Shown: positions 1,903-15,525 of the stretch, one piece after another
Position numbering within the stretch: position 1 is the first letter of the stretch
Layout: the number at the start of each line of letters is the position of its first letter
Assembly: GCA_963678045.2 (NCBI GenBank)
Contig: CAXXCK010000004.1
Coordinates: forward strand, 17,380-81,379
Origin: Erysipelotrichaceae bacterium
GTDB taxonomy: Bacteria; Bacillota_I; Bacilli_A; Erysipelotrichales; Erysipelotrichaceae
Length of the DNA: 64,000 bases
Direction of reading: 5' to 3'
Made by a program: the position numbers and the translations under genes
The notes under the pieces: generated by a model
What the model was told of the DNA's origin: nothing
Databases searched by the model: none
Seen by the model: only the letters and a program-made list of their open reading frames with translations

Positions 1903-2718
1903 TCAAAGTCTCATATCACTTTTAAATTCTTCAACAGATTTCCTCCATTTCAAGAAGTCATTCAAGAACGATTCATATAAAAGGGAGATTATGCTTGCTT
2001 GCATTAGGTAATTAATGCTTAGCTTTGTTATTGATATGTATAATCCTACAATCGTTACAACCAACCGAGTGAACTTTATTAAAGTGGAAACTGCAAAATC
2101 ACTAACAGAGGGTAAAACTCTAATATAGAAAGTATCATCCAGTAGCGTCTGAATCTTTTCTACAGTAATCCAGAACATAAACTCAATGGAAAGGCATACA
2201 GTTACTTTCAAATCAATTCCTAGATTAAATAGTCCAAGCGTATTGTATGGAATAATCCATACTGAGTAAGCCAAAATTGGTAGGAATGTTATTCCGAATT
2301 TTCTATATGATCTCCAGGTGAAAGTCTCAACATCCAGACCATACCAATCCATGTTGTCATATGCCATGATCACTACACTTAACGTGATAAATTTAAAGAC
2401 CCACATTATTAGCAGAATTATCGATGTATATACAAGATTATCTTTCACTAAATACAAAATTAGACCGTCAATAATCCATGTGATTGGATAAGCCAGAGAT
2501 AGAACCCATATAGTTACGAAGAAAGCCATGCCTAAAGCATCTAGTACACTTTCAATTAATCTAGAAAAAAATGTAATCAAATGCATCAATCCTTTCATAA
2601 TGTCTCCAAGTATTCGCTTTGATAAGTTAAATGTATTGATGATTATGTTAAAAGTCTTGACAATTATTTCTTTCAAAGAACACATTATCAACTCCGAAAC
2701 AACTCGAACATTTTTCAT
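1903..2718 (-). CDS. Hypothetical polytopic membrane protein, 271 aa (prophage cargo)
   Basis: The sequence is almost entirely hydrophobic helices (FFVTIWVLSLAYPITWIIDGLILYL, TSIILLIMWVFKFITLSVVIMAY, ITFLPILAYSVWIIPYNTLGLF and others). The region is very AT-rich. The start codon is uncertain because the RBS is weak. Confidence 0.6.
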   Translation of the reverse strand: MKNVRVVSELIMCSLKEIIVKTFNIIINTFNLSKRILGDIMKGLMHLITFFSRLIESVLDALGMAFFVTIWVLSLAYPITWIIDGLILYLVKDNLVYTSIILLIMWVFKFITLSVVIMAYDNMDWYGLDVETFTWRSYRKFGITFLPILAYSVWIIPYNTLGLFNLGIDLKVTVCLSIEFMFWITVEKIQTLLDDTFYIRVLPSVSDFAVSTLIKFTRLVVTIVGLYISITKLSINYLMQASIISLLYESFLNDFLKWRKSVEEFKSDMRL

Positions 2719-2761
2719 ATATTTCTATGATCCTAACTACATTTTATTGTATCTTATTCTT

Positions 2762-3196
2762 TCAATCATTTGCATTATACTTTCCCCCTTTGCTCGTTTT
2801 ATCAACTATTGAATAGTCGATTTTCCTCCAAATCGTCTTTCGATCAAAATGATATTTTGTTTCCATTTCATATATCCCAATTTTGTTGATGTACTTATCG
2901 ATCACAATGCTTCTAATCGGCTCCTCTGGCGCGTCCTCCAATGAATCTATGAAATTCGATACCAAGAAAACATTTCTTTGATTGTACTCCAACTCCTTCT
3001 CGAGTATCGTTAATCGTTCAAGATTATCATAAATCACCTCCTCCCTCTTCTTTGGATTCTCAGGAATCCTTGCTATGCTCCTACCGGCTTTGAATCTCTT
3101 TGTGTCGAGATCCTCAAGCTCAAGTTTTATTCGTTCAACCGAAGCTACGAAGTGTTCATAGTTCTCAAGTGCAATTTTTAGATCCTTTGCCTCCAT
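2762..3196 (-). CDS. Putative late-gene transcriptional activator (RinA/ArpU/DUF1492-like, sigma region-4-like C-terminus)
   Basis: It sits last in the early operon before the packaging genes. The C-terminus IRSIVIDKYINKIGIYEMETKYHFDRKTIWRKIDYSI resembles a region-4 HTH. The start was moved to ATG 3196, which has GAGGTGGTGAGG upstream. Confidence 0.45.
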   Translation of the reverse strand: MEAKDLKIALENYEHFVASVERIKLELEDLDTKRFKAGRSIARIPENPKKREEVIYDNLERLTILEKELEYNQRNVFLVSNFIDSLEDAPEEPIRSIVIDKYINKIGIYEMETKYHFDRKTIWRKIDYSIVDKTSKGGKYNAND

Positions 3197-3206
3197 CCTC
3201 ACCACC

Positions 3207-3644
3207 TCAGAACGGCAGATCATCTGGATCTATATCCAGCAATGTCTGCCCTGTTTCAAATAGCATTTCTTCTATTGATACCTCTATCTCTGATTCATAC
3301 CGGTTACAATCCTGAATGATAGCCGGTGATTGCGATTCATCTGATGCAAACTTCTCTTCATGCTGAATTTCGGTTTGTTTCGTTTTGGGAGATTTCGAGA
3401 GCCTGACGATTGCGAAGATCATTACCTGGAGCGCCCCTTCGTACCGGCTTAGGCCAACACCGGTGATCTTATCGATTGAGATTTCGTCGCCGTCTTTAAG
3501 AACAATTGAATTCGTAGCACAGACCCTCGCGTAGTTCTTCTCATCAGGTTTTTCTTTGTTGTAGTCACGAATCCCGAAGGTTGTCTTGCCCCCATTACTT
3601 GCCTTGACGTAGTTGATCCGGTACGAGTTTAATAGGTTGATCAC
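3207..3644 (-). CDS. ssb: Divergent single-stranded DNA-binding protein
   Basis: The C-terminal tail ...DIDPDDLPF matches the canonical acidic SSB tip (DDD-I/L-PF). It is preceded by a disordered acidic linker. The N-terminal ~95 aa could be an OB fold but is not a canonical SSB sequence. Confidence 0.5.
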   Translation of the reverse strand: MINLLNSYRINYVKASNGGKTTFGIRDYNKEKPDEKNYARVCATNSIVLKDGDEISIDKITGVGLSRYEGALQVMIFAIVRLSKSPKTKQTEIQHEEKFASDESQSPAIIQDCNRYESEIEVSIEEMLFETGQTLLDIDPDDLPF

Positions 3645-3838
3645 TTTGCACCTTCAAGCCACTTGATGCACTCTTCTCTATTGTCAAACTCTTCAGTCCA
3701 GGCATTGCCGTTGCAGTTGTCAATTCCAATGTATGATCCTGTTACATCCTGGACCCAGAACTTTCCGTATGGATTTCGCTTACTGATGATATTTTTTGCT
3801 TGTGCTCTTCCTACTTCTTGGACTTCTGGATTAGTCAT
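3641..3838 (-). CDS. Hypothetical small phage protein
   Basis: ORF in the operon frame. ATG 3838 has AGGGGAG upstream, and the track start 3862 is also possible. It is stop/start coupled to its neighbours. Confidence 0.5.
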   Translation of the reverse strand: MTNPEVQEVGRAQAKNIISKRNPYGKFWVQDVTGSYIGIDNCNGNAWTEEFDNREECIKWLEGAK

Positions 3839-4019
3839 GATCTCCCCTTTCAACGATTTCAATGATGTCTAAGACAACCTTTGCCTTATGATTGTTTTCC
3901 TGGATGTATGTCTGGGATCCTCCATGCTGTAGAGCTCCCAGTGCCAACATCTCATGTTCAAGCTTGTGCTCATTTAACCATTTCAGCATTTCCTCTTTTG
4001 TCGATTTCAGTCCCTTCAT
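3831..4019 (-). CDS. Hypothetical small phage protein (62 aa)
   Basis: ORF with GGAGGAAA RBS before ATG 4019, packed tightly in the operon. Confidence 0.5.
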   Translation of the reverse strand: MKGLKSTKEEMLKWLNEHKLEHEMLALGALQHGGSQTYIQENNHKAKVVLDIIEIVERGDHD

Positions 4020-6296: not shown

Positions 6297-8255
6297 TTAT
6301 GACTGTTTTAAACTTGAATAGCGATCATCCGCATACATACTGATGGTTTGCGAGATCATCGGAACCGGTAAGGTCAGTGACTCTCTGTTGTCAATCAGAA
6401 CCGGAGCCTGGGTATCGTAAACAACTTGGAAACATTTAATGATGTCACAACCAGTGAAGATTCTCTCACCGGTAGATTGAGCGTCATAGGGCTTTCCATC
6501 CAGCAGCGGATCACAGACTTGCTGATATCCTCCGTTGACTTGTTGTTTGAATAGGCGCCATTTGATCCGGCCGAAGTGTGAGCTCAGCTGCTGCTCGATG
6601 ACTTCGTTCTTATCTCTTTCAAACTGTTCACACTGGAACACCAGCGTTTTATACCGGTTCTTTTCAGATACCAACACCGACTCAATTTTGGTAAGTTCAT
6701 CAATTCGAGCTAGTGTTTCTTTCTGTGCATTCAAGGCTCCAAGACGTTGATTGTTGTCACTGATCAAGGCTTGAAGTTCCAGTTTGCGAATCGATTTTCC
6801 AACGTCTTCTGTATTGTTTGACAAGGCAAAGTAGTATGAGTCAACAGTAGATTTTAATGCGGAGATCTCTTTCTGAAGTTCATCAACTTTTGCCTGATCC
6901 ACGAAGTCAGCCGGGGTCATCAGTGAAACATCCGGGAGTGCCGACAGCTTCATCCGCAACTCATCGATCTCTTTTTCAAGATCATCAATGCGTTTTTTGT
7001 TCGTGATCTGTGTAGCTTTATAAGCATCAATGCGTTGCGCAATCTCTTTACCATCAGCGATCGTTTCATTCATGCTCATTGCACGATTTTGCTCAAAATT
7101 GAGTTTATCGTCCGCCAGTAACTTGTCGATATTCAGATCTGGGAGTGACTGATGACAGACTGGACAATTGGTTTCGACAATCGGTGCGATCCAAGTGTCG
7201 TTCTTGATTCTTCCGTATTTGGCTAGCAAATCAGCCTTCTTGTATCCGAGTTGAACGATGTTTCGTTCATCGCTTTCAATGTCATTTTTAAGCAAAGTAA
7301 TCTTGCTCTCGAGACTGGCAATACGGTACTCATGGTCCTGTTTGATACTGGCCGTTTCTGAGCGTTTTGAGGAGTATTCATCGTTTGCCTTGTCAACAAT
7401 CGCCTTGTGAAGTAAGGTCTTTTCGTAGTGTAGGCGTTCGGCATCAATGATGTTTTGCGGCTTCTCTGATGGCCTCGTTTCAGTGAGTTGCGACAACTCT
7501 TTTGAATAACCATTGATCAGAGATTTAAGCGTTAATTCATCCGGGAGTTCCTTTATCGTTCGTTTAAGTTCATCGATCTGATAAGGCAAACGGTCGATTT
7601 CATCCTGGTTTTGTTTTGCCTTCTGTTTCATGGTTTCGAAGAGTTGGCCAAAGGTTTTGTTTTGATTTAGGTCCTTCTTCCATTCAGCATCCAGGATGAA
7701 GTATTCACTTTTATTCCGGATCGAGTTTTCGATATCGGATTCATTCCCAACCAATCGTAGTAGAATCTCGCGACGCTTTTTATAGTCGATCTGAGTCATG
7801 AAGTACATAGGATTTGTCAAAAGTTTGAAAGACTCTTCATCAACAATGTCACTGACTGCTGCATCGTATTCTTTTGTCTTAAGCTTTGATTCGTTGTAAT
7901 ACAGAGACTGAACGTTTCCCTCCATGACCGGATCAGTAGATCCGCGTTTTGTTACCCAGTCTTCCTCTTGTAATCTACGGAATATATGATGAATTCCGTT
8001 GATGCTCAGATCTAGACTTACATCAACGATGATGTTGTGAATGTCATTGCCCATCGCATCTTTGCGCTTGACTGGGAAGTCTTTAGCGCCGTTGGAATCT
8101 TTGTTAAATAACACCCACCAGACAGCATCAGCAATTGTTGTCTTACCGGTACCATTGGCTCCTCTCAATGAGGTCATGGAATCAAATATGATGGTTTGCT
8201 TTTCTATTCCCTTGAAGTTGGAAATCTCAAGTTTATTGAATTCAATCGTTTTCAT
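6297..8255 (-). CDS. Rad50/SbcC-like AAA ATPase with coiled coil and CxxC hook
   Basis: N-terminal Walker A (GANGTGKTT), long coiled-coil middle with CPVCHQ, and C-terminal signature plus Walker B (STGERIFTGCDII...APVLIDNRESL). Confidence 0.75.
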   Translation of the reverse strand: MKTIEFNKLEISNFKGIEKQTIIFDSMTSLRGANGTGKTTIADAVWWVLFNKDSNGAKDFPVKRKDAMGNDIHNIIVDVSLDLSINGIHHIFRRLQEEDWVTKRGSTDPVMEGNVQSLYYNESKLKTKEYDAAVSDIVDEESFKLLTNPMYFMTQIDYKKRREILLRLVGNESDIENSIRNKSEYFILDAEWKKDLNQNKTFGQLFETMKQKAKQNQDEIDRLPYQIDELKRTIKELPDELTLKSLINGYSKELSQLTETRPSEKPQNIIDAERLHYEKTLLHKAIVDKANDEYSSKRSETASIKQDHEYRIASLESKITLLKNDIESDERNIVQLGYKKADLLAKYGRIKNDTWIAPIVETNCPVCHQSLPDLNIDKLLADDKLNFEQNRAMSMNETIADGKEIAQRIDAYKATQITNKKRIDDLEKEIDELRMKLSALPDVSLMTPADFVDQAKVDELQKEISALKSTVDSYYFALSNNTEDVGKSIRKLELQALISDNNQRLGALNAQKETLARIDELTKIESVLVSEKNRYKTLVFQCEQFERDKNEVIEQQLSSHFGRIKWRLFKQQVNGGYQQVCDPLLDGKPYDAQSTGERIFTGCDIIKCFQVVYDTQAPVLIDNRESLTLPVPMISQTISMYADDRYSSLKQS

Positions 8256-8546
8256 CTATGCACCTTTCCTTTGGAAGTATGGATCTTCCGGATGATTCTT
8301 TAAGTGGTTCATGCAATCCTGACACAACTCAAATTCAGGATCCTCAGTGGTCGATATGTCGAACTTCTTACCACAGCGGATGCAGGTTTCAAGGTATGTG
8401 TTTCGTGGTGCCTTGATATGAATAAGTTGTTTTGCCAGTTGGTCCTCCAGTCGATTCTGGCGTGTTGCTTCAACCCAGTAGGCCATAAACGTCATTCCCA
8501 GATAGAAGCAAACAAGGCCGACTACCGACACTTCGATAATGTTCAT
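8256..8546 (-). CDS. Small membrane-anchored zinc-ribbon protein
   Basis: One N-terminal TM helix and CxxC...CxxC (CIRCGKKF...CQDC). The start overlaps the upstream stop (ATGA). Confidence 0.5.
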   Translation of the reverse strand: MNIIEVSVVGLVCFYLGMTFMAYWVEATRQNRLEDQLAKQLIHIKAPRNTYLETCIRCGKKFDISTTEDPEFELCQDCMNHLKNHPEDPYFQRKGA

Positions 8547-8785
8547 AGTTGATCCTCAACCCCTTCCTGGTCTTGTGATGTCTTAGATTTCGCTGGTGAA
8601 AATAAGAACATTAGATTGATAAGTAGTGAGATAATCAGTACCGAGATCGTCAACAGCAAAGAAATTCTTAGTGCTTGCGTTTCACTCGATCTGCGGTATA
8701 ATTTGGGTGTCTTATATGCAGTTTTAAGGGCACCGTTTGCAGACGGTGTTTTTATTTCGTCATCAAGAAATCTTATAAATTTCAT
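8543..8785 (-). CDS. Small membrane protein (80 aa)
   Basis: Has a central hydrophobic helix (LRISLLLTISVLIISLLINLMFLF). It lies in the operon frame. Confidence 0.45.
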   Translation of the reverse strand: MKFIRFLDDEIKTPSANGALKTAYKTPKLYRRSSETQALRISLLLTISVLIISLLINLMFLFSPAKSKTSQDQEGVEDQL

Positions 8786-9101
8786 TCATTGTACCTTCAA
8801 GTCGGCCGTGGTTCTTTTGGCCAACTAGGTCCTGACTGATATGATCGATCGGTAACTTCGTATCGAAGTAGTGATGTTTGAAACGGCTGTCTTCAGAATG
8901 CTGGTAGCGTTTGATTTCTTTTTCTGATGCATGCTCTTTTCTAACATAAACACCGGTGCCAATATCCGATTTGATAAACACGATGCCCTCTTTCACCAGG
9001 GCTTTGATTGCCCTACGGACCGTTCGTTCTGATTCATAATCGGTTTTGTAAATGATTCTTAAAGTTCTGAATAATTCTTTATACTCCTGCAGTTTGCTCA
9101 T
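8763..9101 (-). CDS. Hypothetical early protein, possibly winged-helix
   Basis: I moved the start to ATG 9101 (MSKLQEYKEL) with AAGGAAG upstream. The track start 9188 would lack an RBS. Confidence 0.5.
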   Translation of the reverse strand: MSKLQEYKELFRTLRIIYKTDYESERTVRRAIKALVKEGIVFIKSDIGTGVYVRKEHASEKEIKRYQHSEDSRFKHHYFDTKLPIDHISQDLVGQKNHGRLEGTMNEIYKIS

Positions 9102-9255
9102 GGAGTTCTGCTTCCTTTCTTTTCTGTCTACAATCATCCCGGTACGCATCAATGAACAGCTGCGCGACTTGAGTGAACTCCTCTTCACTCATTACTCGGA
9201 CATGGATGTTGAATTGGCGACCTCTGGTTCTTTTGTTTGGTTTTGTTTCGTTCAT
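9079..9255 (-). CDS. Possible 58-aa basic small protein, below the track cutoff
   Basis: My translation is MNETKPNKRTRGRQFNIHVRVMSEEEFTQVAQLFIDAYRDDCRQKRKEAELHEQTAGV, with AAGAAGG 4 nt before the ATG. It resembles a ribbon-helix-helix protein, but only loosely. Confidence 0.3.
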   Translation of the reverse strand: MNETKPNKRTRGRQFNIHVRVMSEEEFTQVAQLFIDAYRDDCRQKRKEAELHEQTAGV

Positions 9256-9315
9256 ATGCCTTCTTTCTGATTTGCACCAAGTCAGAAAGATATAATTGAC
9301 TTGGAGGATTTACGA

Positions 9316-9549
9316 ATGTTCAAAGTCTATGCTTGCCTTGCTGGCCAGTGGATCTGTACCAGTGGTGATCCGGAGTGCCGATATGGAAATGATCTTAAGA
9401 CATTGGATGAATGGTGGTTATCCGGATGCCCTTTAACTTCGCCCGGATCAATGACTCAGAAGTCACTGATTGATGTACCTTACGTTGATATTCACTTTCA
9501 AGGATCGAGATATCGCGTTCACCCAAGTCTGATCCAGTTTGTTGAATGA
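9316..9549 (+). CDS. Hypothetical 77-aa Cys/Trp-rich protein on the opposite strand to the early operon
   Basis: ATG 9316 has GGAGG 8 nt upstream. The competing minus-strand ORF 9395..9580 has no RBS. Confidence 0.4.
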   Translation: MFKVYACLAGQWICTSGDPECRYGNDLKTLDEWWLSGCPLTSPGSMTQKSLIDVPYVDIHFQGSRYRVHPSLIQFVE

Positions 9550-9623
9550 TCTGATCCGCTGATTCACTATGAACACCCATTTATGTGTTGTATAATTTGC
9601 TCAACTATCTAGGGGGGGCCATA

Positions 9624-9995
9624 ATGAAGCTTAATCACGATTGCGTTAGAGACGTATTATTAGCTATTGAAGCATTACCTTATGATTCGGTAGTTACTAT
9701 TGATGAACTTAATGTTTCCGGATATGATCAGGATGCTATTCGATACATCGTTTTACGGCTCCACGAAGCTGGGTTCATTGATGGAAGTGAGGCTTCAAGT
9801 AATGATGAGTACGAATGTCTGATCCGTTCACTCACCTTTGTTGGTCATGAGTTTCTCGATAATATTCGACCACAAGAGACATGGGATAAGACAAAGGCTA
9901 TAGCATCTAGAGTTGGATCCGCGTCTCTCGATGTTATGGCAAACATTGCTGCCCAAGTAACAACTAGTCTGATTTCAAAGATGATGGGATTATGA
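9624..9995 (+). CDS. DUF2513-like winged-helix protein
   Basis: MKLNHDCVRDVLLAIEALPYD...IRYIVLRLHEAGFIDG...FVGHEFLDNIR matches my memory of DUF2513. ATG 9624 follows a G-rich RBS, and a TATAAT lies at 9591..9596. Confidence 0.6.
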   Translation: MKLNHDCVRDVLLAIEALPYDSVVTIDELNVSGYDQDAIRYIVLRLHEAGFIDGSEASSNDEYECLIRSLTFVGHEFLDNIRPQETWDKTKAIASRVGSASLDVMANIAAQVTTSLISKMMGL

Positions 9996-10131
9996 TTTGT
10001 TGTATCTCTAGAGTCGCTATTTCTTTGTACTGGTGAGTAAACTTTACACCGATCAATCGATCAACCTTCACACCATTTATATATACTTCAGTCTTCGATC
10101 CATCACTGATGATCTTTAGTTTGTCTTCCAT
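9964..10131 (-). CDS. Possible 55-aa small protein downstream of cro, below the track cutoff
   Basis: My translation is MEDKLKIISDGSKTEVYINGVKVDRLIGVKFTHQYKEIATLEIQQIIIPSSLKSD. A strong RBS (AGGAGGGAAGG) precedes ATG 10131. Confidence 0.35.
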   Translation of the reverse strand: MEDKLKIISDGSKTEVYINGVKVDRLIGVKFTHQYKEIATLEIQQIIIPSSLKSD

Positions 10132-10174
10132 CCTTCCCTCCTTTCTACAGCTCCTCCTGTTGATCTACAGAGTC

Positions 10175-10405
10175 TTAAACTTCTTTTCTTGAGAAGAAGT
10201 AAGAAGGCGCTTCTTCAAGCGGAATTTTCAACAGTTCACATGCTCTGTGCATTTCCGGGCTGTCGAATCCGATTTGATTATTCAAACGCTTAGAAAGAGA
10301 AACTGAGGAGATACCTAATGCTTTCGCAAAAGACATTTCCGTATGGTAAACCTCTTTGATTCGACCTCTAAGTTTTGAATAGTCAAACCTTACTACGATG
10401 GTCAT
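10175..10405 (-). CDS. cro: Cro-like HTH regulator
   Basis: HTH SFAKALGISSVSLSKRLNN, divergent from cI. I moved the start to ATG 10405, 8 nt after AAAGGAG. Confidence 0.7.
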   Translation of the reverse strand: MTIVVRFDYSKLRGRIKEVYHTEMSFAKALGISSVSLSKRLNNQIGFDSPEMHRACELLKIPLEEAPSYFFSRKEV

Positions 10406-10422
10406 TAACATCACTCCTTTCA

Positions 10423-10533
10423 CTTAAGTTATCTTAAGTTATCTACATTATAGTCTTAAGATATCTTAAGTCAATAGGGATATTTTAGATTTCTTAATTA
10501 TTTTTACTATTTATGTTGATAAGAATTAAGAAA
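10423..10533. promoter_or_regulatory. Operator set of the lysis/lysogeny switch
   Basis: CTTAAGTTATCTTAAG lies at 10423..10438. The perfect 16-bp palindrome CTTAAGATATCTTAAG lies at 10455..10470. A 10-bp inverted repeat, TTTCTTAATT (10490..10499) and AATTAAGAAA (10524..10533), is also present. That gives six CTTAA half-sites in total. Confidence 0.55.
10447..10474 (-). promoter_or_regulatory. Leftward early promoter (cro side)
   Basis: On the minus strand, TTGACT (10474..10469), a 16-nt spacer, then TATAAT (10452..10447). The perfect palindrome fills the spacer. Confidence 0.5.
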
Positions 10534-10543
10534 TGTTTATAAT
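10516..10543 (+). promoter_or_regulatory. Rightward promoter for the cI operon
   Basis: TTGATA (10516..10521), a 16-nt spacer, TATAAT (10538..10543), then RBS GAGGTGA and GTG 10562. Confidence 0.55.
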
Positions 10544-10561
10544 GTGGGTTGAGGTGATACA

Positions 10562-11209
10562 GTGGAAACATTTGCAGAGAGACTACAACAAGCACTACAG
10601 TTCAGAAATATAAAGCCTTCTGAGCTCGCAACAAAGACGGGCCTAAGCCAATCTCTGATTTCACAATATTTAAGCGGAAAATTCGAAGCTAAGAATGACA
10701 AAATCAGTGCTATAGCAACAGCACTTGAAGTTAATGAGTCTTGGTTAGCTGGATTTTCTTCTGTTATTGATAATAAAGAGACTGTTAAGGCGATCTTACC
10801 CGTTAAAGTCATGACCAACAAGATACCGGTATACGGTCGGATTCCTGCAGGCGTTCCGTTCGAAGCAATCCAGGACATCCTCGAAGATGTCGAGATCCCC
10901 AGCTGGCTGGCTGAAAAAAAAGACCTGTTCGGTCTCAAAGTAGTTGGTGATTCAATGAATAAGGTTATTCCGGACGGGGCCATAGCGGTCCTCCAAAAGA
11001 CGGAGCACCTTAACAATGGTGAGATCGGGGCCATCCTTGTAAACGGGTTTGACGCCACGCTGAAGAAATTCTACAAGCTTACGGACAGTATCGTCCTGGA
11101 ACCACTCAGCTACAACCCATCCTACGAACCCATGGTAATAAAAGAAAATAGCCAGGATGTAAAGGCGATCGGTAGACTCGTCTGGTTTTGTGCTGCGGAG
11201 GCAATGTAA
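10562..11209 (+). CDS. cI: CI/LexA-like repressor (XRE HTH + S24 peptidase)
   Basis: N-terminal HTH (ELATKTGLSQSLISQYLSG). The C-terminal S24 domain has GDSM and LKKF catalytic Ser/Lys motifs. Confidence 0.85.
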   Translation: METFAERLQQALQFRNIKPSELATKTGLSQSLISQYLSGKFEAKNDKISAIATALEVNESWLAGFSSVIDNKETVKAILPVKVMTNKIPVYGRIPAGVPFEAIQDILEDVEIPSWLAEKKDLFGLKVVGDSMNKVIPDGAIAVLQKTEHLNNGEIGAILVNGFDATLKKFYKLTDSIVLEPLSYNPSYEPMVIKENSQDVKAIGRLVWFCAAEAM

Positions 11210-11212
11210 ATT

Positions 11213-11461
11213 ATGCACATTTTCTTCATGACACGAAGAGATATTTATGAAGCAATGGACATTGCACCATCAATGGCAACAAAGATGATCAAGCTCTACA
11301 ACGAAGACGTAACTAAACGTGGATACACTCTAATCAACAATGGCACAGTTCATATAAAGACGTTTTGTGAGTTTCACCATATTGATCATGATCAGTTAGT
11401 TGAGAATATTCTAGAGATTAGAAAAATCAGACCGAAGTACTCAAGAACGAGTCCTCTATAG
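11213..11461 (+). CDS. Small protein, possibly DNA-binding (excisionase/DUF3173-like)
   Basis: It starts 3 nt after the cI stop. RRDIYEAMDIAPSMATKMIKLYNEDVTKRGY resembles small HTH proteins found next to recombinases. The assignment is weak. Confidence 0.4.
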   Translation: MHIFFMTRRDIYEAMDIAPSMATKMIKLYNEDVTKRGYTLINNGTVHIKTFCEFHHIDHDQLVENILEIRKIRPKYSRTSPL

Positions 11462-11470
11462 GTCCAAGAT

Positions 11471-12487
11471 ATGAAAATATTCAACCCAGCAGGTTCAAGA
11501 CAAAGCAAGAAAGGAAGAAGAGAAAGATTAGTTGATTTTTCGATTAAGCATCCCTATATCTTTTCATTTGCTTTGATTGTATTGGAGATATCGACATTCA
11601 GTAATAACAATTGGGTCATCGCTGTTATAAATGGATTGATGACACTTACTTGCATCATTTTAGTATTTGCACTAAATAAAACAAAGGATAGTTCGGATGT
11701 TTTTTATAGTCTGACCATAATCTTGGCACCACTATTTCTTATTATCACTTACATAATGACGCTTATTGGAAAGTTCCTTATACCTGTGATTTTTCAGATC
11801 GGATCCATTGAATCATGGATAGGCTTTGCCGGATCGATATTAGGAGGAACTATTACTATGATAGCTGTCTCCTACACTATAAGTAGTGAATCAAGACTAA
11901 AGAGAAAAGAAATAGCACTGACATCGATGCCTAATTTGCTTATTGGATTATCTGGTTCATACGCGCTTGGTATAAGCTCAACCACTCTTAATGGAGAGCA
12001 AGTTCAAGACGATTTCTACTCTATTCATATAGAACCAACTATCGAAAATATATCAGCATATCCAGCCCAGAACCTAAAATTCACTCGTGCAGAAGTAATG
12101 ATTCACGAATCATTTCTCTATGGTCTTGATAAGAAGACCAAGCCAGTGAGTCTGATATCCAAACTCGATCAATTCAATGCCGATAAGATAGTGAATATTT
12201 TTATTCAAAAAGAAAATAAGATTTCGTTCCCAATCATGTTTGATTATCCAATACCAAAAGATAAAAATGATGACGTGAACATGGTACTAATAGAAATTGA
12301 CTTTGAATATCAAGATATGATGCAATGCTTTACACATAAGAAGAAATGTAAGATCGAATTTACTCCAGGTTTTCCTAAACCAGATAGAAAGTCAAAAAAG
12401 AAAGTACACCCAATAATTATTATCCCAGAGATTACGAACACACCTTTGAAAAATGAAGAACTTGCAGATGCATTTAAAACACACTGA
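11471..12487 (+). CDS. Hypothetical membrane protein: 4-5 N-terminal TM helices plus a ~190-aa soluble C-terminal domain
   Basis: Hydrophobic helices occupy residues ~25-150, followed by a mixed beta-like domain and a Lys-rich tail. It starts 9 nt after the preceding gene. The DNA is very AT-rich. I recognise no family. Confidence 0.6.
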   Translation: MKIFNPAGSRQSKKGRRERLVDFSIKHPYIFSFALIVLEISTFSNNNWVIAVINGLMTLTCIILVFALNKTKDSSDVFYSLTIILAPLFLIITYIMTLIGKFLIPVIFQIGSIESWIGFAGSILGGTITMIAVSYTISSESRLKRKEIALTSMPNLLIGLSGSYALGISSTTLNGEQVQDDFYSIHIEPTIENISAYPAQNLKFTRAEVMIHESFLYGLDKKTKPVSLISKLDQFNADKIVNIFIQKENKISFPIMFDYPIPKDKNDDVNMVLIEIDFEYQDMMQCFTHKKKCKIEFTPGFPKPDRKSKKKVHPIIIIPEITNTPLKNEELADAFKTH

Positions 12488-12581
12488 TGGGGCCAGGGTG
12501 TCGTGTAGCAATCTTCAGGAAAGGAGAATGACTACATAGACATCATAGTATAATTACAGAAAATAACAATTGGGAGAAACC

Positions 12582-13562
12582 ATGAAGGAAAAGCCATTCT
12601 TAACATTTAATTCACAGATGAAGTATCTAAGGGATAAGAAAAAAATTGAATGCTATGGTAGCAACCATAAAACTTTCTTAATAAAGTATGGTTATTTCAA
12701 TCTCATAAATGCCTATAAATTCCCTTTTGTGAAAGGATTCGATACAGATGGAGATCACATCTATATTGGTGGAACCAGTATTGAGCATTTCGTTTTACTA
12801 AAACAATTTGATGATAACCTTAGAATTCTTCTTCTACAAACACTTACCAGAGTTGAAGAAGAAATCAGAAATTTGGTTTCGTATAAACTAGATCATACAA
12901 ACGGTAAATCACTTGAATGGTATGATGTTCAATCTTATAACCCAAGAAAAGATACTCAAGATATTATAAGAGTAATTTCGAGGTGCTTCAGTTCTATTGA
13001 TAAAATGAAAAACGATTACGTTTCGCACTACACCGATAAATACGGAAAGGTCCCAACATGGATCTTCACTAAAGTAATAAAGTTCTCAGAGCTAATTGAT
13101 GTTATTGGAATATCTCGTGTTGAAATTCTGGAAGCATTGTGCACTCTCTATAATCTCAAGGATAAAAGGGGGATTAACAAACACAGCCTTCTAATAAACT
13201 CTCTACATACTATCAGATCAGTTAGAAACTCTTGTGCTCACAATGAAAGAATAGTATTCTTTAGAGATCCTGACAGCCGAATGAATTTGCCATTTGAAAC
13301 CTTCATTGTTAGTCCCAATAGATATAAAAATGACCGTGATAAACTTTTAATCGACTTGATAGTATCGCTAAAGTATTTCATGGACTCGAGAGATTATGAA
13401 AGTTTAATTAATCAGATTATCTCAATGCTTGATAGCCTAGCCACTCAGATAAATCCAAGCGCCTTTGATGCAATAAGAGGTAGTCTTGGCATTAAAAGAA
13501 TGACAGATTTGGTCTTCCTGAGGGATCAAAACCGCAATAAAATCCTCTATAACAATTTCTAG
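12582..13562 (+). CDS. Abi_2 (AbiD/AbiF-like) abortive-infection protein with a HEPN Rx4H motif
   Basis: N-terminus KPFLTFNSQMKYLRDKK...YGYFNLINAYK and the motif IRSVRNSCAHNERI (DNA 13221..13250), where RNSCAH is the Rx4H signature. I moved the start to ATG 12582, after GGGAGA. Confidence 0.75.
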   Translation: MKEKPFLTFNSQMKYLRDKKKIECYGSNHKTFLIKYGYFNLINAYKFPFVKGFDTDGDHIYIGGTSIEHFVLLKQFDDNLRILLLQTLTRVEEEIRNLVSYKLDHTNGKSLEWYDVQSYNPRKDTQDIIRVISRCFSSIDKMKNDYVSHYTDKYGKVPTWIFTKVIKFSELIDVIGISRVEILEALCTLYNLKDKRGINKHSLLINSLHTIRSVRNSCAHNERIVFFRDPDSRMNLPFETFIVSPNRYKNDRDKLLIDLIVSLKYFMDSRDYESLINQIISMLDSLATQINPSAFDAIRGSLGIKRMTDLVFLRDQNRNKILYNNF

Positions 13563-13571
13563 GAATATCAA

Positions 13572-13600
13572 TTGACGGTCAATATTGCCTATGATAATAT
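13572..13600 (+). promoter_or_regulatory. Candidate sigma-A promoter between abi and int
   Basis: TTGACG (13572..13577), a 17-nt spacer, then TAATAT (13595..13600) with an upstream TG at 13592..13593 (extended -10). Confidence 0.4.
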
Positions 13601-13632
13601 GTATTTGTGAGATATCCAGTGAACGCTGGATG

Positions 13633-13672
13633 AAAAACCACAGTACATAGTATTGTGGTTTTTCGCTTTTTT
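13633..13672 (+). terminator. Rho-independent terminator 16 nt upstream of the int start codon
   Basis: AAAAACCACA (13633..13642) pairs with TGTGGTTTTT (13654..13663) around an 11-nt loop, followed by CGCTTTTTT. Confidence 0.6.
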
Positions 13673-13688
13673 AGAGTAAGGAGTAAGT

Positions 13689-15257
13689 ATGAAAAAAGCT
13701 GCCGCATACGCTCGCTTCAGTAGTGACAATCAGCGCCAGGAAAGCATCGATGCTCAAGTAAGGGCCATTCAGGACTACTGTGCAAAGTGTGAACTCCATC
13801 TGATCAAGATTTACCAGGACGAAGCGATGAGCGCCACTAACGATCAGCGGGATCAGTTCCTTCAGATGATTGATGACGCAAAGAAGCATGAGTTCGAGTA
13901 CGTAATCGTCCACAAGCTGGACCGATTCGCGCGTAACCGGTATGACAGTGCGTTTTACAAACGCGAGCTGAGGGTTCAAGGCGTCAGGATCTTGTCGGTC
14001 CTCGAGAATCTAGATGACAGCCCGGAATCGATCATACTTGAATCAGTTCTGGAGGGCATGGCCGAATACTACTCAAAGAACCTTGCCCGGGAAGTTCGCA
14101 AAGGCCAAAAAGAAAATGCTCTAAAGGGGATCCACAACGGTGGCATTCCTCCATTTGGATATAGCGTGGTCAATAAGATTTTAGCGATCAATGAGCAGGA
14201 AGCTGAGATCGTCCGGATGATCTTCAAGCTATATAATGAAGGCAGCGGGTATACAACGATCAGTGATACCCTGAATTCTTTGGGATATAAGACGAGAGCC
14301 GGAAGACCGTTTTCAATCAATAGTCTCTATGATCTGATCCGGAACGAGAAGTATACCGGCACTTACGTTTTCAACAAGCGTGAGTCTAAGAGCACCGGTA
14401 ATCGAAAATACAAACCGGATGATCAGATCGTAAGAATAGAGGGCGCGTTCCCTGCTATCATTTCAAGAGAACTTTGGGATATGGTTCAAGAGATCATATC
14501 AAAGAAAACGAACGTGCGGAGGCTGGCAACCAGAGAGTACTTGCTCAAAGGGAAGATCGTTTGTGCTATCTGTGGCGGTACCTATGTCGGCAGCGGCTAT
14601 GTTCTTCACAATGATAGTGATCACTACACCTATTCATGTTCAACCAGAAGAAGATCCAAAGAGTGTGATAACAAACCGGTTTATGCCGGCTATCTTGAAG
14701 ATTACATAGTCCACCATATTATTGGTAACTTCATGACAGACCAGTACATTGAGAATGTCACCAAGAAATTCAATGAGGATAGTGCAAAAGAACTTGATGA
14801 GAACATGGCTATTCTGGCCAGAGTGGATAAGCAAACTGCTAAACAACAACAAAAAGAAACCAAGCTCTGGGAACTTTTCTATGATGGGATCATCACGAAA
14901 GCAGTGTTCCAGGAGAAACAGGTTGAGCTTGAGAACGAGCTTAAGGATCTGGAAAAAGTAAAATCGGAAGTAATGAACAAGAAGGTCGTTAAGACAATGT
15001 CGCCGGAGTCCTTCACAGAGTTTTTGCTTGATCTGCAGAACAAAGCTAAGGATGATAATCAAAACACAAAAAAACTGCTCATTGCAGCTTTTGTCGACCG
15101 TGTCGTAGTCAATAAGGAAATAATTGATCTCCATTTCCGAGATTATATCAAGGAAACAAAGACCAATTATAGTGATGCGACTGGTGGAGATGAGGGGAGT
15201 CGAACCCCTGTCCAAATTGCGTCCACATTCAACCCTCTACAGTTTAGTCTGAGGTGA
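13689..15257 (+). CDS. int: Large serine recombinase (phage integrase)
   Basis: It has a resolvase N-terminal domain (AAYARFSSDNQ...VHKLDRFARN), a recombinase domain, and a zinc-ribbon (CAICGG...YSCSTRRRSKECDN). A coiled coil follows. The last 76 nt overlap ssrA in antisense. Confidence 0.9.
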   Translation: MKKAAAYARFSSDNQRQESIDAQVRAIQDYCAKCELHLIKIYQDEAMSATNDQRDQFLQMIDDAKKHEFEYVIVHKLDRFARNRYDSAFYKRELRVQGVRILSVLENLDDSPESIILESVLEGMAEYYSKNLAREVRKGQKENALKGIHNGGIPPFGYSVVNKILAINEQEAEIVRMIFKLYNEGSGYTTISDTLNSLGYKTRAGRPFSINSLYDLIRNEKYTGTYVFNKRESKSTGNRKYKPDDQIVRIEGAFPAIISRELWDMVQEIISKKTNVRRLATREYLLKGKIVCAICGGTYVGSGYVLHNDSDHYTYSCSTRRRSKECDNKPVYAGYLEDYIVHHIIGNFMTDQYIENVTKKFNEDSAKELDENMAILARVDKQTAKQQQKETKLWELFYDGIITKAVFQEKQVELENELKDLEKVKSEVMNKKVVKTMSPESFTEFLLDLQNKAKDDNQNTKKLLIAAFVDRVVVNKEIIDLHFRDYIKETKTNYSDATGGDEGSRTPVQIASTFNPLQFSLR

Positions 15258-15525
15258 TAATCACCGGGTTTGCGTCAGACAGGCTCCCGATGATTTGTTC
15301 TACTGGTGTTTAGCTAAGCTTTGTAAGAACGACTGGCTTAACGATCCCATCTTTTTTGTGCCGTCTATAAACCCAATGGGCAGGGTTCAAAGAGACAGCT
15401 GCGCTCCGCTAGGAGACTAAGCAGCGAAACTTAATTTGTTTCCGTTTAAAGTTTTTTGGCAATTAGGTCGCCACTCCACTGCAGATTGAATCCAACAGAC
15501 AACCTGTCGAAACCATGACACCCCC
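15182..15525 (-). ncRNA. ssrA: tmRNA (SsrA)
   Basis: On the minus strand the 5' end is GGGGGTGTCATGGTTTCGACAGG and the 3' end is GGACAGGGGTTCGACTCCCCTCATCTCCACCA (T-arm, acceptor and CCA). The tag frame reads ...AAC GGA AAC AAA TTA AGT TTC GCT GCT TAG, which is ...NGNKLSFAA-stop. Confidence 0.9.

Follow-up and report, generated by a model that had tools for sequence, protein, structure and literature searches.

The interval between the phage repressor and the integrase in a 64,000-nucleotide stretch of the genome of an Erysipelotrichaceae bacterium (contig CAXXCK010000004.1; this whole stretch is hereafter called the window) is in all likelihood a mosaic of independently acquired cargo genes, or 'morons', stacked as independent modules in a variable slot. 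This cassette, at 11209-13679, contains orf82, orf338 and a gene of the Abi_2 family, for which an earlier reading of the sequence (the original prediction) had proposed either a multi-component Rex-like sensor/effector system or two stacked exclusion systems. The best overall explanation, which we regard as probable, combines stacked modules with a stand-alone exclusion or defence membrane protein encoded by orf338, an ordinary HEPN gene (Abi_2) and a passenger gene (orf82). We report here the anatomy of the locus, the modular independence of its parts, the linkage of the membrane protein to cI and its fold class. The open reading frames (ORFs), the gaps of 3 and 9 nucleotides (nt), the RNSCAH motif, the TATAAT hexamer and the count of 17 G+C among the 60 nt at 12241-12300 were all found in the sequence as originally described, and the main features are as follows.

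10516-10543, + strand: promoter-like site ahead of cI, TTGATA-16-TATAAT, with 11 of 12 consensus matches
10562-11209, + strand: cI-type repressor with HTH_3 and Peptidase_S24 domains (2e-24)
11209-13679, + strand: low-GC cargo cassette, the stretch without DNA similarity to the sister prophage L022
11213-11461, + strand: orf82, 82 amino acids (aa), 3 nt after cI, a weakly Xis/helix-turn-helix (HTH)-like orphan
11471-12487, + strand: orf338, 338 aa, 9 nt after orf82, predicted to have four transmembrane (TM) helices and an immunoglobulin (Ig)-like beta-sandwich
11816-11911, + strand: orf338 codons for the last part of the outer loop plus the glycine-rich TM4 (WIGFAGSILGGTITM...), where conservation in the family is highest
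12497-12544, + strand: stable hairpin (z = -4.1) inside an element of about 60 nt (12477-12536) also present in L016
12549-12554, + strand: TATAAT hexamer ahead of Abi_2, a sequence match
12582-13562, + strand: Abi_2 / AbiD-F HEPN protein, 326 aa from the ATG, matched by Pfam, PADLOC and PHROG
13224-13241, + strand: HEPN Rx4H motif RNSCAH in Abi_2
13631-13665, + strand: intrinsic terminator, a 16-pair stem and a T run, common to L012
13689-15257, + strand: large serine recombinase (integrase); L022 homology restarts at 13680

The borders of the cassette are given by L022, a sister prophage that was recovered in a metagenome contig of 4.3 kb and is 92.5% identical to the window at the nucleotide level up to 11208 (the cI stop) and 84.6% identical from 13680, just ahead of the integrase start, to past the gene for transfer-messenger RNA (tmRNA). 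These limits place the cassette exactly at 11209-13679, between the cI stop and the integrase ribosome-binding site. The cI-integrase interval of L022 holds a single gene of 330 aa, separated from cI by 3 nt and from the integrase by 2 nt, whose product matches the orf338 family profile at 1.5e-68 and is 29% identical to orf338 over 108 aa; a member of the orf338 family can thus fill the slot by itself. The sister prophages show allele replacement at the same slot.

Co-occurrence of the cargo genes was assessed by profile searches over all stop-to-stop ORFs of 15 independent orf338 family loci (GTDB genomes supplied seven, JGI metagenomes one and cluster representatives the other seven) and of six Abi_2 loci. 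The Abi_2 profile (A6) matched just the six Abi_2 loci, and the family profile (A1) just the 15 family loci and the window copy; neither an Abi_2 gene nor orf82 was present at any of the 15 family loci, and no relative of the membrane protein at any of the six Abi_2 loci. No partner gene is conserved across the 15 family loci, and in L022 and L005 the family member stands alone. The stacking that had been suggested for this integrase-repressor hotspot is therefore upheld, with a cassette bounded at the cI stop and the integrase ribosome-binding site and with parts that occur independently elsewhere.

A joint Rex-like system, with orf82 as DNA binder or regulator, orf338 as RexB-like membrane sensor/effector and Abi_2 as HEPN effector, is on these data very improbable, and the co-occurrence check that the original prediction had itself put forward was negative for it at the 15 and 6 loci. 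It is true that the three cargo genes share a strand, that 3 nt separate cI from orf82 and 9 nt orf82 from orf338, and that the genes form one low-GC block with a single + strand terminator after Abi_2, at a position analogous to that of lambda rexA-rexB. Nevertheless, orf338 family members and Abi_2 do not co-occur, the membrane-protein relative of L022 is alone, Abi_2 is found alone between cI and the integrase in streptococcal phages, the Abi_2 module has a separate DNA ancestry from its ATG to its terminator, orf82 is an orphan, and neither RexA/RexB nor any other Pfam or PADLOC family was matched by orf82 or orf338. In phage lambda, rexA and rexB lie downstream of cI, and RexB has four TM helices. 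The likeness of orf82 and orf338 to this pair lies in their position downstream of cI on the same strand, their probable production in the lysogen and, for orf338, the four predicted TM helices it has in common with RexB; they differ in that orf338 has a putatively cytoplasmic domain of 190 aa of its own, no conserved partner and neighbours that are not conserved, while Pfam, PHROG and PADLOC gave no match that would make orf82 or orf338 a member of RexA/RexB.

The linkage to cI recurs across the orf338 family, whose relatives come from metagenome-assembled genomes (MAGs) of gut Erysipelotrichaceae, Clostridia and Oscillospiraceae. The family gene directly follows an S24-type cI, at gaps of 0-20 nt, in L005, L008, L016, L020, L021 and L022, and is separated from cI by a DUF4041+T5orf172 gene in L007 and by two genes, for 52 and 123 aa, in L019; on the short contigs, the cI C-terminus is directly readable. 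At least three repressor C-terminal sequence types are represented among the cI-linked loci, and the partner integrases are of the serine type in L007, L008, L016 and L022 and of the tyrosine type in L005. Including the window, nine loci have the membrane protein between cI and the integrase, and two of the 15 family loci are too short for repressor linkage to be judged. Given this position directly downstream of an S24 cI, with probable co-transcription or translational coupling, orf338 would be made in the lysogen. A 122/123-aa protein (MTQ.ET.LLNWMIDFYKKC...) without a Pfam match was also observed beside family members, downstream in L008 (9076-9444) and upstream in L019 (518-889), and is a second recurrent cargo gene of the slot. 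The gene that separates cI from the family member in L007, an Erysipelotrichaceae MAG, encodes a 423-aa DUF4041 + T5orf172/MUG113 protein (2626-3897) and is of a defence-island type.

Searching 1.84 billion cluster representatives (50% identity clusters) exhaustively with HMMER at E <= 1e-3 yielded at least 129 representatives of the orf338 family, with members mostly of 250-350 aa. A k-mer protein search with orf338 had returned only orf338 itself and one relative, so that the exhaustive search was required to reveal the family. Neither for orf338 nor among 27 aligned members was there a consistent Pfam, PADLOC or PHROG match; orf338 had no match in NCBIfam, and the family profile had none at E <= 1 among PDB sequences. 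The original prediction had allowed for a match of the membrane protein to a known single-gene Sie (superinfection exclusion) or Rex family, and no such match was obtained. As far as the libraries searched show, the family is undescribed, a new family within a known kind, the membrane proteins of prophage lysogeny modules. With respect to annotation, the public gene call for orf338 (P0001, NCBI/ENA) is a truncation of 209 aa from Met130, which loses TM1-TM3 and the first part of TM4, and the full 338-aa product is recorded only from another ENA assembly (P0131).

The N-terminal TM helices and the separate C-terminal domain that had been noticed in the translation were borne out by structure prediction. 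The AlphaFold2 model of orf338, built on the 27-sequence alignment (pLDDT 78.7, pTM 0.62), has TM helices at residues 28-44, 48-70, 74-103 and 113-151, of which TM4 runs on as a long helix and is followed by a beta-sandwich at 156-325. Prediction of the C-terminal domain alone, which had been recommended for this unassigned part, gave an Ig-like beta-sandwich (pLDDT 80.8, pTM 0.79) with generic fold matches. Averaged over the 27 members, lysine and arginine residues number 5.0 in the N-terminus and 4.1 after TM4, and among the loops 3.0 in loop 2-3, 1.4 in loop 3-4 and 0.4 in loop 1-2, a distribution which suggests that both termini are inside and that the beta-sandwich is probably cytoplasmic. 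Mean pairwise identity is 42.5% in residues 104-147 (outer loop and TM4) versus 17-21% elsewhere, with 17.6% in the C-terminal domain, and the short outer loop and TM4 carry the conserved pattern P....GS.D.WIGFAGSILGG..TM.A, with the small residues GxxGxxxGG.

That orf338 is an anti-phage exclusion or defence protein is a reading that we hold to be evenly balanced. If it is, the protein would act alone at the cytoplasmic membrane against incoming phage: its variable cytoplasmic domain would recognize a component of the incoming phage and the conserved TM part would then act, either by pore formation and depolarization or by blocking the DNA-entry route, so that a Rex/Cap15-like logic (RexA plus RexB) would be contained in one polypeptide. 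This sensor-effector version, which we prefer, is put forward tentatively. It is likewise possible, although doubtful, that the family as a whole constitutes a hitherto undescribed anti-phage system, made of one gene and carried by prophages of gut Bacillota, in which a fast-evolving Ig-like sensor would control a glycine-zipper TM effector and alleles would be swapped at the cI-integrase slot.

Among known effectors, the CBASS (cyclic-oligonucleotide-based anti-phage signalling system) protein Cap15 consists of two TM helices and a beta-barrel. Cap15-type effectors resemble orf338 in that TM helices at the N-terminus lead into an all-beta domain on the cytoplasmic side; on the other hand, the predicted fold of orf338 is an Ig-like sandwich and not a barrel, and neither a cyclase nor another signal generator lies nearby. 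PADLOC matches within the family are sporadic and weak (CARF_TM in one of 27 members, 2TM effector in one of 27). At the level of fold matches, Kir/KirBac channels and ApaG also resemble orf338, with TM helices plus a cytoplasmic Ig-like sandwich and Foldseek probabilities of 0.9-1.0, and ApaG matches in the generic sandwich only (TM-score 0.6, ApaG-normalized). An identity as a Kir-type K+ channel was rejected, given a TM-score of about 0.2, a root-mean-square deviation of 17-23 A and the lack of a GYG/GFG selectivity filter.

Sie genes are known to occur in the integrase-repressor interval of temperate phages of Gram-positive bacteria (PMC7693887, PMC3952083), and it has been described that P22 SieA is a single inner-membrane protein whose allelic types are less than 30% identical (PMC10883804). 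In this regard, orf338 resembles P22 SieA, lactococcal Sie2009 and Ltp of Streptococcus thermophilus, which are single membrane-associated prophage proteins encoded in or near the lysogeny module, with strongly divergent alleles (PMC10883804, PMC7693887, PMC3952083). It differs from them in architecture: SieA has about 162 aa and three TM helices, the small Sie2009 has a single hydrophobic segment at its N-terminus and Ltp is an external lipoprotein, whereas orf338 has 338 aa, four predicted TM helices, a putatively cytoplasmic beta-sandwich and no lipobox. A possible alternative, almost as likely as the sensor-effector version, is an injection blocker of the SieA/Sie2009 type, which would stop the DNA entry of related phages without killing or sensing. 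The position in the lysogeny module and the cI operon, the polytopic membrane protein, the highly divergent alleles in near-identical prophages, as in the SieA types (PMC10883804), and a conserved outer loop and TM4 that could contact a conserved host entry factor would all suit such a blocker. However, known Sie proteins are half as large as orf338, a cytoplasmic domain that an injection block would not obviously require makes up more than half of orf338, the external loops of orf338 are tiny, and it has no sequence or profile similarity to Sie families.

It is also conceivable, though unlikely, that orf338 is not directed against phages and serves lysogenic conversion or housekeeping (bacteriocin immunity, envelope stress) or modulates repressor stability or induction. 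Family members that lie away from repressors, single or in tandem, in MAG chromosomes (L001-L004, L006), the lack of any match to defence models and the generic use of Ig-like cytoplasmic domains as interaction modules would be in line with such a role, but the tight and recurrent coupling to three cI lineages, the allelic replacement at the same slot and the stacking with defence-type genes (Abi_2 in the window, DUF4041+T5orf172 in L007) argue against it. In L006, an Oscillospiraceae MAG, the two tandem paralogues are located at 7956-8753 and 8925-9806, with no repressor nearby.

Several observations weigh against a stand-alone, prophage-borne exclusion protein stacked with Abi_2 and orf82. 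Five of the 15 family loci (L001-L004 and L006, with shorter 2-TM forms) are not repressor-adjacent, and some of them look chromosomal, so the family is not exclusively prophage cargo; moreover, the context sample is small, 15 loci from at least 129 cluster representatives, and biased to close relatives of the query. Searches of orf338 by tblastn against 50,697 GenBank phage records gave no match, and IMG/VR scans with the family alignments A2, A3 and A4 gave none that was confirmed, as was also the case for the IMG/VR scan with Abi_2. The 27 family members have no consistent homology to Sie, Rex, Abi or PADLOC families. For orf338, Foldseek returned nothing but generic Ig-like sandwiches (ApaG, GH2 Ig domains, Kir C-terminal domains, Spo0M and YjhA), with no match at E <= 1e-3 for the C-terminal domain alone. 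The orientation with both termini inside comes from the positive-inside rule and the AlphaFold2 model, and the co-transcription of orf82 and orf338 with cI, which is plausible, is read from the spacing of the genes. Finally, orf82 has no homologues beyond copies of the same phage, as searched by tblastn against the GenBank phages, in the IMG/VR scan and at the 15 + 6 loci.

The Abi_2 gene is most likely an ordinary single-gene abortive-infection determinant of the AbiD/AbiF type, encoding a putative HEPN RNase and followed by its own terminator. Its product matches Pfam Abi_2 at 1.1e-35 (124 bits, the gathering score being 25.6, over 182 of 184 profile positions), PADLOC AbiD at 8.9e-36 and phrog_2158 at 2e-57, and R, N, C, A and H of the R-N-x-C-A-H motif are invariant in 20 homologues. 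Translation may start at 12570 (TTG) or, preferably, at 12582 (ATG), and stops at 13562. DNA similarity to L012 (72.6% identity) covers 12582-13663, that is the Abi_2 ORF and the terminator; its beginning at the 12582 ATG fixes the start codon, and its extension through the terminator makes the latter part of the Abi_2 module.

The surroundings of the homologues are in agreement with the proposal that Abi_2 is a single-gene system, as neighbours differ at all six homologue loci and no protein partner is conserved. The closest homologue (L012, 73% aa identity) lies in a chromosomal defence island and adjoins IS21, that of L013 (61%) is beside a restriction-modification system, that of L014 (49%) is among small genes of unknown function, and in Streptococcus phage IPP38 Abi_2 is the sole gene between cI and the integrase, the same location as in the window; identity to the copies in GenBank phages is 20-28% only. 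Compared with AbiD, AbiD1 and AbiF (Pfam Abi_2, PF07751; HEPN superfamily), of which streptococcal and pneumococcal phages have copies, the Abi_2 of the window is full-length and a single gene. AbiF(Cd) of Clostridioides difficile, encoded in the lysis module of phi027, has an abiF RNA motif and the antitoxin RNA RCd22 upstream (PMC12373285), whereas the window gene is not in a lysis module and has no match to the abiF RNA motif (Rfam RF03085) or an RCd22-like antitoxin RNA at E <= 10 within 11000-14000; both are absent upstream of five Abi_2 homologues as well. The window gene enlarges a well-known family at a well-known site and offers nothing new beyond one more prophage copy.

Between orf338 and Abi_2 lies the element of about 60 nt at 12477-12536, whose hairpin has a minimum free energy of -25.8 kcal/mol (z = -4.1). 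The element is 79% identical to positions 6952-7013 of L016, where it follows a terminator and precedes the integrase ATG by 27 nt. The element may have served as leader or regulatory sequence of the integrase before the Abi_2 insertion parted the two, and given its place near the integrase in L016, the most straightforward account would have the Abi_2 module inserted later, between an older integrase leader and the integrase. The hairpin at 12497-12544 was also considered as an Abi-linked RNA and rejected, since conservation of it was not seen in the regions ahead of Abi_2 homologues and the integrase leader of L016 shares it.

The HTH-like character that had been ascribed to orf82 holds in a soft form: its matches are the NCBIfam ICEBs1 excisionase (NF047858), with 20 bits against a cut-off of 100 (E 4e-4; residues 5-53 on profile positions 2-49 of 61), and phrog_989 (E 1e-4), and there was no Pfam HTH match. 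Membership in ICEBs1 Xis was rejected on score, and orf82 is an orphan passenger. A function as phage excisionase (recombination directionality factor) or as regulator of the cargo genes is improbable: the excisionase match, the small size and the nearness to the integrase would fit, but the score is far under the cut-off, neither a Pfam HTH domain nor homologues were found, L022 has an integrase more than 90% related and lacks orf82 in its cI-integrase interval, and an excisionase co-transcribed with cI would oppose lysogeny.

The cargo genes stand out in composition, with a G+C content of 36.5% in orf82, 33.9% in orf338 and 33.3% in Abi_2 versus 45.2% in cI and 44.6% in the integrase. From the promoter-like site ahead of cI to the end of Abi_2, the scan found no + strand terminator; the only terminator sites within this span, at 10706-10725 and 10920-10936, are both on the - strand, and the sole + strand terminator is that at 13631-13665. 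The TATAAT hexamer ahead of Abi_2 has a poor -35 (ATGACT, with a 15-nt spacer) and is absent from the promoter scan output. Between the Abi_2 stop and the terminator, at 13572-13600 (+), there is a further promoter-like site of the form TTGACG-17-TAATAT, with an upstream TG, and because of that downstream terminator its transcripts, if the site is real, would need read-through to reach the integrase. At 11779-11860 (+), within the orf338 coding sequence, the SAM-III (SMK box) riboswitch gave a match of 25.5 bits (E 0.0066) versus a gathering score of 45; being under the gathering score and inside an ORF, it is probably due to chance.

The flanks of the locus carry three additional features.

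10474-10447, - strand: divergent promoter-like partner, facing the DUF739 Cro-like gene
10175-10423, - strand: DUF739 Cro-like gene (Pfam DUF739, 1.3e-18)
15182-15525, - strand: tmRNA gene with the tag peptide GNKLSFAA, its 3' end overlapping the end of the integrase ORF

The tmRNA gene covers the last 76 nt of the integrase ORF, and this junction is also present in L022 (85% identity); from this overlap, the prophage has the 3' end of ssrA as its attachment site, and its right end lies within the window. In the early region, a gene for a 652-aa SMC/RecF-like AAA ATPase is located at 6297-8255 (-), with homologues at the equivalent position in the L008 and L016 prophages, a placement which points to a backbone common to these prophages with different cargo between cI and the integrase. 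A megablast of 10000-15500 against GenBank phages gave no match.

The repressor-integrase slot of temperate phages of Gram-positive bacteria holds genes that protect the lysogen, most of which are unannotated in gut Bacillota, and near-identical prophages with different cargo at exactly the same junctions provide a natural experiment on such genes. If the orf338 family excludes phages, it would constitute a new single-gene, membrane-acting family of defence or superinfection exclusion, and it would also serve as a marker for lysogeny modules in metagenomes.

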